Both the position numbers and the translations under genes were made by a program. From assembly GCA_963719035.1 (NCBI GenBank), contig CAVRAO010000012.1:128001-192000 (forward strand): a DNA stretch of 64,000 bases, in the 5' to 3' direction. This DNA comes from Methanobacteriota archaeon (GTDB taxonomy: Archaea > Halobacteriota > Bog-38 > Methanoflorentales > Methanoflorentaceae). This document shows, piece after piece, positions 9,197-55,812 of the stretch (position 1 is the first letter of the stretch; each line of letters starts with the position of its first letter). The notes beneath the pieces are model-generated. The model made no database searches. It had not been told where the DNA came from and worked only from the letters and a program-made list of their open reading frames with translations.

Positions 9197-9679
9197 GTGA
9201 TTTCGATGGTTCAAACGGAAGTAAAAATGGTTGAAGAAATGCGAGCAGCGTGCATATTCCACAACGGTGCTGTTTCAGCGATTGGCGATGATATGGGGCG
9301 TCTTATAGGTGAGCTGATGGGATGGGTGATGAAGCGCGGGGTGAAAACGGAAGGGCCCCCATTCGCGGTCTATTACAGCAGCCCCGACGACATGGCGCGA
9401 GGTGAAATGCAGTTTGAAGTGGGTATCGCCTTTGTCGGAGAGGCTCAAGAGGAGGGCACTATCCGGATTAAAACATTCCCAGCGCAAAATGTGCTCTCAG
9501 CGATCCATAAAGGACCGTATAACCAAATAGCGCCTGTTTATGCAGCATTAATGGAATATGCTACGAATAACGGATACGAGGTAATCGGCCCACCTATGGA
9601 ACTGTGGCTAACGAATCCTATGGAAGTGGCAGAAAGCGAATTGCTAACAGAAGTGCGCTTCCCCGTGGCAAAGGGATAG
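9197..9679 (+). CDS. GyrI-like small-molecule-binding domain protein
   Basis: GPPFAVYY, HKGPY, E.WLTNP..V...ELLTEV.FPV. Confidence 0.9.
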   Translation: MISMVQTEVKMVEEMRAACIFHNGAVSAIGDDMGRLIGELMGWVMKRGVKTEGPPFAVYYSSPDDMARGEMQFEVGIAFVGEAQEEGTIRIKTFPAQNVLSAIHKGPYNQIAPVYAALMEYATNNGYEVIGPPMELWLTNPMEVAESELLTEVRFPVAKG

Positions 9680-10552
9680 GCGAACTTGTGTTTTTGTGCG
9701 TTTCTTATTCAGTCACTTCTTCACTATCGTACTAAAGTAGGTATGCGAGGATTTATCATATTTCCAAGGTCGTCGACGCTCTAGCATAAAAACTACAAGT
9801 GATTTCACTGTTTTCCTCCCGTGAAGAGACACTTGGACCAGTTTAATCTTATGGTAACTTGGCAAGGTATTGGTAGGAGCATATCTTGTACCTTCGCTGA
9901 ACTCGCTAGATAAGCGTTTCATTAGAAGGCTAAGATAGCGTTTAAAAAGGAATTAATCGCTATTAGCTTTTTAGATCCTGTGGACTCTACCGAGCAATGC
10001 AGTATGAACTATTATGGGTGTGCACATCCCCTAGGTCATACTAGTCTAAGGTTGCCTCCTACTTGGGTATGACTCATTGAGGAGCCTAGGTCGCCTCTGT
10101 CATGTTAAATCGAGATTAACCCTCATCTGGGCATTTCAAAAGAGTACGCAGCCTTCCACTAAAAGGTTTCCACCATTTCCTGTGCAACGGCTTCGTAGGT
10201 TAGGTTATAACTAATGTTTTCAAGAGCTTTAATCTTAAAAATAGCAAATTATTAAGATCCTTTAATTATTCTAAGGTTATTTTTAGTCATATAATTAAAA
10301 TAGAGCCCATTATGACTTTTTTTAGCATCGCTCGCTGGGCGCATGTGAGACGGCAGTCGAAATGGAGCTAGAAAATATTTAAAAAGACGCCAGGGGGCCC
10401 GTTGGACGGTGCTTCCAATGGAACCTTAGCGGCTTTCGAATTCATATGTAGATATACGCTGGACTTCGCGCATTTATAAAAAGAAGGGCATCTTGGCTAT
10501 AGTAAACCTTTATTTCTAGTCCAGATTTCCAAACGGAAGTCAAAATGGAACC

Positions 10553-10567
10553 GAAATCGTTAAATAT
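10553..10567 (+). promoter_or_regulatory. Archaeal BRE/TATA promoter of the hairpin RNA, copy 1
   Basis: GAAATCG-TTAAATAT, identical in copy 2, about 25 nt upstream of a GATGC initiator-like site. Confidence 0.65.
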
Positions 10568-10588
10568 AACTCTTACAGTGTTTAATTC

Positions 10589-10675
10589 GTCGATGCTGGA
10601 GAGCGAGGGCCCGCTGTGTGGCCCTACCTCGAACCGTCTTTTAAATGCATGCGGCGGACCCCGCTCTGTATTGAC
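10589..10675 (+). ncRNA. Candidate small hairpin RNA, copy 1
   Basis: gtcgatgc/gtattgac, agagcg/cgctct, ggg/ccc, ccgctgtgtg/catgcggcgg; loop gccctacctcgaaccgtcttttaaatg. Confidence 0.65.
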
Positions 10676-10764
10676 TAAAGAAGTTATTATGGATGCCTCT
10701 TAAAGCGTGCGCAGCATTTTAAATTGCGTTTAACGTCTATAGCGCAATTGGCACGTTGAAGAGC

Positions 10765-53978: not shown

Positions 53979-54569
53979 TTAGAGTCTCTTTACCTCTTCT
54001 GTCTTAGGCTTACGTCGAAACAGGCGATCCCTCAATGATCGTTTCGGCGGTTCCTCATCGATCTCTGGCAGGGGTGCTTGCACTTCCTCAGCTTCTACCT
54101 CATCTTGGGTTGATTGCAAAGGTGAAGACACAGGCTGCGGTAGCAAGCGAGTAAGGGCTTCGCTTACGTCCGCGAGCCGGTCAATGACCTTGCTAGACTC
54201 ACTCCCATAGAATCCTGCAATGGTCTCATACCGTTTGATCTCATCCTCGCGCGCCAGTTTAAAGCTCTCGTACTGCGCTGTCAGCCTCTCTATCATATCC
54301 GTTTTCATGAAAAGGAGCTCTTCCTTATGATGCAGCTCCCTTTCCCGCTTTTCCAGTTCTGTTTCTAAGCGAATCACCGTGTCACGTGGCACCATTAGTG
54401 TTTCGAGGCGTTTGTCTGCAGTATGCCCATTGGCCCGTGTTGTGCCTAGATATGTGTCTAGTGCCGTAGTAACGATTTTACTCCGACTGCTATTTTCGGA
54501 CCGTGCCTGCTTATCAGCAGCGGCCAAGAGCTCGTCTGAAATGGCAATAGTAACCTTGTTTAATGGCAT
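53979..54569 (-). CDS. Ribbon-helix-helix (CopG-like) protein with a coiled-coil C-terminus
   Basis: KVTIAISDELL...D..A.....SRS.IV..AL..YL, then heptad repeats. Confidence 0.75.
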   Translation of the reverse strand: MPLNKVTIAISDELLAAADKQARSENSSRSKIVTTALDTYLGTTRANGHTADKRLETLMVPRDTVIRLETELEKRERELHHKEELLFMKTDMIERLTAQYESFKLAREDEIKRYETIAGFYGSESSKVIDRLADVSEALTRLLPQPVSSPLQSTQDEVEAEEVQAPLPEIDEEPPKRSLRDRLFRRKPKTEEVKRL

Positions 54570-54675: not shown

Positions 54676-55203
54676 TTCCACTAAATGATTCGCACTATTT
54701 CCGATGCAAATTCCAAAACTTATTTTTTAAAAAAAGCTATTTTAGTGGCCTAAACGCCAAAATAACGAAAAAAAAAGCTATTTGCTAAATCTAAATCGCT
54801 TGATTACCCTTTTGAACAAACGGGACGCTTAAATAGCGTCGTTGCTACCGCTCGCTGCTTCAAGCTAAAACGGCAGTCGAAATGGAGCTGGAAACTATTT
54901 ATAACGGTTTTAGTATCATCAGCGAAATGAAATTCTTTCTGTTGGGCCCAAGAAACGAGATTGAGTCGTAAATACGGCCAGAATGTGCTTTAATTGTCAA
55001 AATAAAAATCTTAGCGCAATCGAATACCCCTATTTCGAGTCCAGATTTCAAAAAGAAGGATAAAATAGAAACGAAATCGTTAAATATTATCAAAGTGAGG
55101 TTTATTGTGTCGATGCAGCGGGAGCCGGGCCGCGCCTAAAGGCCCTACCTCAAAACGCGCTCTTTTCGTTTGGCGGGCCCGTGCTCCACGTTGGTCGTCG
55201 CAT
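54676..55203 (+). repeat. Dispersed ~530-bp non-coding element, copy 2
   Basis: Same motif blocks as 10154-10675, at an offset of 44520-44522 nt. Confidence 0.85.
55107..55203 (+). ncRNA. Candidate small hairpin RNA, copy 2
   Basis: cgatg/cgtcg, cagcg/cgttg, ggagc/gctcc, cgggcc/ggcccg, cgcc/ggcg; loop contains ggccctacctc; TATA at 55080; T-rich tract follows. Confidence 0.65.
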
Positions 55204-55245
55204 GTTTTCGATATTTTCTCTTCTTTCCTTTCGTTATACTTTTCG
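55204..55245 (+). terminator. T-rich archaeal terminator-like tract after hairpin RNA copy 2
   Basis: gttttcgatattttctcttctttcctttcg. Confidence 0.4.
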
Positions 55246-55269
55246 ATTTGTTACAGTGAGTTCTATGTG

Positions 55270-55812
55270 CTAACGACGATTCCAAAATCGCGAAAAGGTG
55301 CTCTGCGATCGAGGTGATTCTTCAAAACTGTGCATAAAAAAAAGCTTAAAGTACGAGCCGTCTATTTTTTTTCTCATGATTACCTTGAACCCTAGCCTTT
55401 CATACATAGCTAGAGCTGCTTCATTGGTCTCCCACGTAGTGATGAGTGATGCGTCCATTCCATCTTGGAAGAGCTTTGACATCGCGAATTGTACCAATTT
55501 TATTCCAATACCGATTCGTCGAAACTCAGGGAGCACTGCGAGCGTTTCTATGAGACCGAGTTGTGGGCGTCTGTAGTTATAGATGACAGCTACGACGCCA
55601 ATGACTCTCTCGCCGTCCACTGCCTTGATCCAACCCCGCCGCCTATCGTTTAAGATCCGTGTTATTTTGACGCGCAAATTCTCACCGTCGGTAAGCGGCG
55701 GCACAAACTCGTTATTGACGACGTTGAGCAGGTTGAGGATGTCGTTAAAGTCGTTCCAGTTCGCTTCACAAATTGTGAACGTCTCGAGCGGTTCCAGCAA
55801 TCGCATTACCAT
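55270..55812 (-). CDS. GNAT family N-acetyltransferase
   Basis: AV.PEFRR.GIG..L, N..A..MYE.LGF. Confidence 0.9.
   Translation of the reverse strand: MVMRLLEPLETFTICEANWNDFNDILNLLNVVNNEFVPPLTDGENLRVKITRILNDRRRGWIKAVDGERVIGVVAVIYNYRRPQLGLIETLAVLPEFRRIGIGIKLVQFAMSKLFQDGMDASLITTWETNEAALAMYERLGFKVIMRKKIDGSYFKLFFMHSFEESPRSQSTFSRFWNRR

Follow-up and report, generated by a model that had tools for sequence, protein, structure and literature searches.

The question raised by this locus is whether two intergenic stretches of an archaeal genome, each able to fold into a long hairpin downstream of the same promoter sequence, are genes for a non-coding RNA and, if they are, on what such an RNA would act. 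The DNA analysed here (hereinafter the window) is a 64-kb portion of contig 12 of a 2.19-Mb, 13-contig assembly that is 91% complete. This genome contains an archaeal 16S rRNA gene (3′ end GGAUCACCUCCU) together with an mcrA gene, and the host therefore is a methanogen or a close relative of methanogens. The initial annotation of the window had described the two hairpins as copies of a candidate new small RNA that exposes an anti-Shine-Dalgarno-like loop and would mask ribosome binding sites or serve as a decoy for a Shine-Dalgarno-binding factor. The comparisons presented here demonstrate a gene family that is conserved in sequence and structure and non-coding in nature, and its members very probably are genuine non-coding RNA genes; the suggested mode of action fared less well.

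The two hairpins in the window, copy 1 (type A) and copy 2 (type B), fold into an end-to-end bulged stem, in agreement with the initial annotation (Table 1). The minimum free energy of the plus strand is −40.6 kcal/mol for copy 1 (z −4.0) and −49.6 kcal/mol for copy 2 (z −3.55), and none of 200 shuffled sequences was as stable in either case; folding of the respective minus strands is less favourable (z −1.7 and −2.1). The plus strand is favoured by G-U pairs as well as by the covariance-model score: copy 1 reaches 64.8 bits with model R1 and 69.4 bits with model R2 (see below) versus 20 bits on the reverse strand, and copy 2 scores 88.2 bits with R1. The 5′ end of copy 1 is placed solely from its spacing to the TATA box and from comparison with copy 2. 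The two copies can be aligned over approximately 245 nt, with a mean column identity of 77%, and the highest similarity is found 70–110 nt upstream of the RNA rather than in the stem. An alternative 5′ hairpin (gggcc/ggccc), in which the 5′ strand pairs with the loop motif, forms in both copies as had been pointed out, but at −15.1 and −12.6 kcal/mol it is far weaker than the rod and, judged by eye, it is good in type C only; it was rejected as the main fold and is retained only as a possible folding intermediate.

Table 1. Positions of the hairpins, their loops and the associated conserved elements (window numbering unless a contig is named)
Feature	Position	Strand	Remarks
Distal conserved 60-nt element, copy 1	10328..10386	+	ends in TATA-like ATATTTAAAA
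Proximal conserved upstream element, copy 1	10505..10567	+	includes BRE/TATA; nhmmer E 1e-15
Rod hairpin, copy 1 (type A)	10589..10675	+	covariance-model core 10597-10671
Apical single-stranded loop, copy 1 (as predicted)	10621..10647	+	block 1 GGCCCUACCUCGAA (from 10620), block 2 CCGUCUUUU
Distal conserved 60-nt element, copy 2	54848..54907	+	ends in GAAACTATTTATAA
Proximal conserved upstream element, copy 2	55025..55087	+	includes BRE/TATA 55072-55087; nhmmer E 5.5e-17
Rod hairpin, copy 2 (type B)	55107..55202	+	covariance-model core 55117-55191
Apical loop, copy 2	55137..55171	+	30 nt AAGGCCCUACCUCAAAACGCGCUCUUUUCG
Two T4 tracts directly after the rod of copy 2	55205..55217	+	possibly weak oligo-T terminators
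Distal conserved element, type C	contig 12, 208452-208509		outside the window

A covariance model built from 39 sequences (R1) detects five members of the family in the host genome, namely types B, C, A, D and F (88, 73, 65, 53 and 28 bits, respectively), and exactly the same five are recovered by a second model built from 71 members (R2). Types A and B are located in the window, and type C is a third copy on the same contig outside it. Matches to R1 are present in 16 of the 17 other genomes of the genus, the only matchless genome being 61% complete, and each of two complete genomes of the genus contains six. In relatives, type C is followed at a distance of 1.7 kb by the sixth type, E, which the host genome lacks. 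Type E was seen in eight relatives (G002, G017, G009, G013, G010, G001, G011 and G008; loci L119–L126), where it is followed by a conserved stretch of about 90 nt (GGCCGCAGCAGCUUUGCGGUUGCGAUAAUUUUCUAUUUACAGUGUAGGCGAGGCCGCUUUAAGCCCC...) and lacks the usual promoter element of the family. The type A locus of the relative G008 (L044) retains the promoter and the first ~18 nt of the RNA, followed by unrelated sequence, and is not matched by the covariance model; the type A gene in this genome probably has been disrupted or rearranged.

Outside the genus, R1 found no match in any of six genomes of the sister genus, R2 found none in five genomes of that genus at E-values up to 5, and a sample of 137 other genomes of the phylum (61 genera) yielded none either. 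The ortholog of the GNAT gene that flanks type B has, in the sister genus, neither a ribbon-helix-helix neighbour nor a look-alike RNA within 1.5 kb. Exact-pattern matches in public species-representative genomes amounted to 20 stretches, all in metagenome-assembled genomes recorded as Halobacteriota, Methanomicrobia, Methanobacteriota or simply archaeon. Among the genomes sampled, the family is confined to a single genus of uncultured archaea that carry mcrA, and its members appear to be old paralogs that occupy syntenic places across this genus of uncultured methanogens. The claim that the hairpins match no known Rfam family holds for all types: a scan with Rfam 15 at the gathering threshold gave no match in the 64-kb window, nothing overlapped either hairpin at E-values up to 10, and the C, D, E and F loci gave nothing relevant at E-values up to 1. 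A literature search with the motif as a text string returned unrelated papers only, and small RNAs are absent from the titles and abstract openings of the papers listed under a placeholder name.

The observation in the initial annotation that the stem sequences diverge and yet pair is substantiated by covariation across the family. In the alignment of 71 members, which was fitted to the model and hence favours its pairing, the 15-bp core is 87.7% paired and 12 of the 15 pairs vary on both sides; the observed value was not reached on any of five measures by any of 500 column shuffles, and sliding the partner by 1–3 columns brings pairing down to 29–49% of cells. For the orthologs of types A and B, MAFFT alignments were made without fitting to structure. 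The 28-bp rod of type B is 98.7% paired across 14 orthologs and includes two compensatory pairs, one of which is A-U in seven sequences and G-C in the other seven whereas the other changes from G-C to A-U, as well as six pairs that vary on one side via G-U. The rod of type A is 96.7% paired in the alignment of orthologs from 10 species and shows no compensatory change at all, which counts against the preferred scenario (see below). Given that compensatory changes are absent within type A and few within type B, the support for the stem comes mainly from the comparison of paralogs.

The apical loop varies between 27 and 35 nt across the family. The sequence GGCCCTACCTC is found exactly at 10620-10630 and 55141-55151, and with at most one mismatch it has four matches in the window versus 0.42 expected, a number not reached in any of 100 shuffles. 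The downstream UCUUUU also is conserved in both window copies, as initially noted. The motif had been considered invariant, which is correct for these two copies but not for the other paralogs: it is GGCCUGCCUC in type C, with CUGCCUC compared to CUACCUC of copies 1 and 2, GGCCUACCUC in type D, which is short by one C, and GGGCUACCUC in type F. What the paralogs share is limited to block 1, YGGSC(C)URCCUCRAA, and, to a lesser extent, block 2, CCGUCUYUU. Within ortholog groups the loops are nearly frozen, in contrast to the 3–4 nt directly preceding the motif, the stem sequences and the 3′ tail, all of which vary, and to the flanking proteins, which are only 73–88% identical across species. Specifically, the 30-nt sequence AAGGCCCUACCUCAAAACGCGCUCUUUUCG is the same in 13 of 14 type B orthologs, the exception being a single C-to-A change, and 9 of 10 orthologs of type A share the 21-nt sequence UGGCCCUACCUCGAACCGUCU. 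Because the loop is near-constant in each ortholog group whereas compensated variation is seen in the stems and the proteins encoded alongside diverge, the loop appears to be the part under selection. A small hairpin inside the B loop (AAACG/CGUUU) was ruled out because it is broken in half of the B orthologs; as this hairpin is not kept, the loop was treated as unpaired, which seems to be the best reading.

Both window copies are preceded, as stated in the initial annotation, by an identical 16-nt BRE/TATA sequence (CGAAATCGTTAAATAT; 10552-10567 and 55072-55087), and the hairpins begin 20–22 nt after it; the proposal of paralogous, independently promoted structured RNAs is supported. An alignment of 45 upstream regions reveals a proximal element of about 65 nt that ends in the TATA box. 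In an nhmmer search of the genome, this element has four matches, located only ahead of A, B, C and D (E ≤3e-14; next best 2.1), and the upstream sequence of type F differs from it. The similarity between A and B begins approximately 110 nt upstream of the RNA, with a further block approximately 215 nt upstream. The distal element was searched with an nhmmer profile of the B orthologs, which has three matches in the genome (E 6e-17, 4e-10 and 1e-8; next 1.7), ahead of A, B and C only and nowhere else. The spacer between the distal and proximal elements is not conserved, and neither the distal element nor the spacer folds better than shuffled sequences (z −1.5 to +1.3). The distal element could be a distal promoter.

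The neighbouring genes differ among the paralogs, but for each paralog synteny is retained from species to species. In both window copies the hairpin faces a downstream gene in converging orientation, and type B is located between a diverging ribbon-helix-helix gene and a converging GNAT gene in all 13 loci from other species. A promoter of its own, indels that break any reading frame (see below) and flanking genes that diverge or converge are all in line with a generic trans-encoded archaeal small RNA. The ribbon-helix-helix protein (196 aa; window 53979-54569, minus strand) has this domain at its N-terminus, followed by a tail that is long and charged; its gene points away from small RNA B in all 13 other loci examined, one of the matches being partial, and the protein is a candidate regulator of the B locus. 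Two PadR-family paralogs that are 50% identical (L001 176-688, plus strand, and L061 1908-2435, plus strand; contig 12, outside the window) adjoin type C, upstream on the same strand, and type D, in diverging orientation. The genome has only five PadR matches, and for either paralog the adjacency with the small RNA recurs in three other species; these PadR proteins may regulate the shared upstream element. Other neighbours are a GyrI-like small-molecule-binding protein (window 9197-9679, plus strand), an MFS exporter (L001 819-2108, plus strand) and the GNAT acetyltransferase (window 55270-55812, minus strand). As pure speculation, neighbours with roles in small-molecule sensing or detoxification might be a clue to the conditions of RNA expression.

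Transcription of copy 2 is hinted at by three runs on record as RNA, which contain part of this copy. The best of them, X1, yielded a contig (245 nt, two differences, depth 18.8) that covers 55107-55351 and includes the whole hairpin; one of its ends coincides with the predicted start at 55107. There is no cover to the left of this position, which by itself is no evidence of a start. The contig extends 150 nt past the rod and overlaps the 3′-terminal 82 nt of the converging GNAT gene. The X2 and X3 contigs, which come from relatives and have depths of 2–2.6, correspond to 55021-55207 and 54999-55148 and span the promoter, so that 55107 as the transcript start is putative. These promoter-spanning contigs possibly represent DNA carry-over or could result from transcription from the distal element, which as a distal promoter would explain why contigs from RNA libraries run across the proximal one. 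Because the contigs carry no information on strand, true ends or level, they are a hint of transcription rather than a proof.

Several readings of these loci other than trans-encoded RNA genes are to be considered. The transcripts might encode small proteins, given that ORFs of 52 aa (10545-10703) and 70 aa (55105-55317) overlap the hairpins. However, one-base indels among the B orthologs break any frame and thus exclude a coding one, the conserved motif is read in a different register in either ORF, a Pfam search of the ORFs that overlap the hairpins (52, 70 and 64 aa) gave no match, and the substitutions track base pairs, not codons; a protein product is hardly conceivable under these circumstances. 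Nor is it at all likely that the repeats are DNA-level palindromes, for instance the remnant of a small mobile element, a site of recombination or a terminator that works in both directions. A repeated unit of ~200–450 bp with a long imperfect inverted repeat, present in several copies on one contig, would fit such an origin, but the copies are syntenic orthologs across 17 species that are strongly diverged among paralogs, the pairing relies on G-U pairs that are lost on the other strand, the promoter is at a fixed distance, no transposase is encoded nearby and none of the viral contigs contains a copy. Slightly better supported, albeit still improbable, is a cis-antisense function, whereby the hairpin would form the stable 5′ portion of a longer RNA that reads into the converging gene (GNAT for B, DUF2807 for A) and acts on the mRNA of this gene. 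Both window copies face a converging gene, the X1 contig enters the GNAT gene, and copy 2 is followed only by weak T4 tracts; nevertheless, the downstream genes differ among paralogs, the distance from B to the GNAT gene ranges from ~70 to ~760 nt among species, the sequence after the rod is not conserved, the C orthologs have T5–T8 directly after the rod, and the conserved loop would be left unexplained.

If the loci are genes for trans-acting RNAs, the next issue is the function of the loop. The likeness to an anti-Shine-Dalgarno sequence suggested in the initial annotation is limited: only ACCUC is common to the loop and the 3′ tail of 16S rRNA (GAUCACCUCCU). In the alignment of 71 members, the base after CCUC is G or A with a single exception (U) and never the C that an anti-Shine-Dalgarno CCUCC needs, and in two further members CCUC itself is replaced by ACUC or UCUC. 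The Shine-Dalgarno sites of the GAGGUA type that had been invoked as targets are indeed present, with GAGGTA located 5–6 nt ahead of all four starts (7007 and 7369 on the minus strand, 37457 on the minus strand and 46634 on the plus strand), but they are ordinary Shine-Dalgarno variants. There is no genome-wide enrichment of GAGGUAG ahead of start codons: GAGGTAG is located 3–10 nt ahead of a long ORF in 19 of 243 cases (0.078), other GAGGTNN words range from 0.042 to 0.104, and the canonical GAGGTGA occupies such positions in 61 of 360 cases (0.169).

Potential targets were sought among 5019 candidate start regions, which were derived from a crude ORF-based call of 2073 genes, by duplex energy alone. 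With the loop cores of A, B and C, duplexes at these regions are as stable as with shuffled cores (for type A, the mean is −12.60 versus −12.69 to −13.41 in four shuffles). Pairing of the loops with the rRNA operon likewise is no better than that of shuffled loops (eight shuffles per loop), and a blastn-short search with reverse-complemented loops gave no match above 15 nt and none in a start region; no extended complementary site was detected at start regions, the matches being at chance level. For the D loop, a perfect match of 11 nt is located 19 nt ahead of a helicase gene (contig 2, 673109). In an alignment of this site from the host and 11 other genomes, the GAGG core is present in four and the full 11-nt site in the host and one other; because the site varies (GAGG to GGGG or CGGG) whereas the loop is constant, the match was rejected as a chance one. 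The helicase itself (contig 2, 673128-676067, plus strand, outside the window) is a 979-aa protein with a C-terminal tail of CxxC zinc-finger-like repeats that, judging by eye from the translation, we take to be a member of the Hel308/Ski2-like family. With a 5-nt anti-Shine-Dalgarno overlap, start-region pairing on a par with shuffled loops and no conserved target, all from weak tests, neither masking of ribosome binding sites nor a decoy for a Shine-Dalgarno-binding factor gained support. The crude scans, based on ORF-derived starts and duplex energies, leave room for short-seed pairing, and specific masking of ribosome binding sites by the RNA, albeit unlikely, is unproven rather than refuted.

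Under the preferred scenario, each locus would be an independent gene that specifies a non-coding RNA of ~100 nt, possibly processed from or contained in a longer primary transcript, with transcription driven from its own BRE/TATA promoter behind the family-specific upstream element of ~65 nt. The 5′ and 3′ ends would pair to form a bulged rod of ~28 bp that presents an unpaired, pyrimidine-rich loop of ~30 nt, in which the family-wide block Y-G-G-S-C-(C)-U-R-C-C-U-C-R-A-A is followed by a paralog-specific block. The shared block would seed pairing with G/A-rich mRNA sites of the GAGG(U) type, Shine-Dalgarno sites and others, and the choice of targets would depend on the paralog-specific block. 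We infer that the RNAs act in trans by base pairing; that they do so via the loop, most likely as sibling riboregulators, is a tentative proposal, and so, to the same degree, is the identification of mRNAs as the pairing partners.

The pairing scenario is at odds with the failure of the start-region, rRNA and short-match searches to find a target, and the ~30 frozen nucleotides of the loop exceed the needs of a seed; a protein-binding site or a tertiary fold would account for them no less well. The long frozen loop and the unsuccessful target searches make a protein-binding RNA nearly as likely. In this case, which is possible although on balance doubtful, the loop would be the docking site of a lineage-specific RNA-binding protein, with the RNA serving as a decoy, as a sponge or to scaffold a small RNP, and what distinguishes the paralogs would be their regulation or the binding of a second factor. 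Apart from the constancy of the entire ~30-nt loop within ortholog groups, well beyond a seed, and an RNA target undetectable in the searches run, protein binding would be compatible with the dedicated, unusually long conserved promoter module that is found nowhere else in the genome. However, there is no candidate protein; the loci adjoin genes for unrelated enzymes and DNA-binding regulators and none for an RNA-binding protein; the genome lacks a Ro60/TROVE gene; and each RNA contains a single copy of the motif compared to many in known sponges. A more elaborate and distinctly less probable possibility is that the RNAs are scaffolds of a small archaeal RNP instead of regulators that pair with mRNAs, such that the frozen loop docks a lineage-specific protein and the promoter is a snRNA-like module with its own transcription factor; the module, comprising the 65-nt proximal and the 60-nt distal elements, would perhaps be read by the PadR-type regulators encoded beside two of the paralogs. 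If PadR reads the module, the system would be tied to a peat-typical stress, such as phenolic compounds.

In terms of shape, the RNAs resemble the Y RNAs of Ro60 RNPs, which are found in animals and some bacteria, are approximately 100 nt long, combine a long bulged end-to-end stem with a pyrimidine-rich loop and are represented by several paralogs with dedicated conserved promoters. The likeness is one of shape only: there is no match to an Rfam Y RNA, and a search of the host genome (91% complete) for the TROVE domain (PF05731) gave no matches whereas the Deinococcus and Bacteroides controls were matched, which rules out a Y RNA or Ro60 RNP identity. Box C/D small RNAs are characterised by a C box (RUGAUGA) near the 5′ end, a D box (CUGA) near the 3′ end and a kink-turn. 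The 5′ end of the RNAs described here is GUCGAUGC rather than RUGAUGA, there is no CUGA at the 3′ end of the rod, and none of the Rfam C/D families overlaps the hairpins; box C/D identity was accordingly rejected. Of the two closest parallels in organisation, the first, as far as the published description goes, is provided by the cuckoo RNAs of Alphaproteobacteria (CcsR1-4 and relatives), sibling RNAs with 2–4 adjacent hairpins each, in which the stems vary and every loop carries the shared motif CCUCCUCCC (PMC4615179). Sibling genes in several copies per genome, freely varying stems and a common C/U-rich loop motif are features of both groups. The archaeal RNAs differ in that each forms one long rod, the motif is GGCCCUACCUCRAA, and the copies are unlinked genes with a promoter each; there is no sequence relation and, under the definition of cuckoo RNAs given in that source, the single hairpin per RNA and the absence of CCUCCUCCC from the loop set the family apart. 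The second comes from methanogens: the loops of sRNA154 and sRNA41 of Methanosarcina mazei are described as masking ribosome binding sites (PMC5867862). These too are intergenic, promoter-driven RNAs with loops that pair with mRNAs, but according to the same description they are single-copy, restricted to Methanosarcina and have known targets and a known regulation (nitrogen), whereas the present family has 5–6 paralogs; it is distinguished from sRNA154 and sRNA41 by this description and by the lack of a match to an Rfam model.

The family thus belongs neither to the cuckoo RNAs nor to the loop-acting small RNAs of Methanosarcina, nor to any Rfam family; it is an uncatalogued family of sibling small RNAs of ~100 nt with five or six copies per genome, strongly conserved and probably expressed. 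To our knowledge, archaeal regulatory RNAs have been characterised in a handful of cultured model organisms, and we are aware of almost nothing on regulatory RNAs in uncultured methanogens of peat and wetlands. The 71-member covariance model makes the family ready for inclusion in RNA catalogues and usable as a marker in metatranscriptomes. The combination of a conserved RNA family with a promoter module unique in the genome provides a clean handle on lineage-specific regulation in an uncultured methanogen, and identification of the partner of the loop would reveal either sibling small RNAs of the bacterial type in archaea or a new small RNP.
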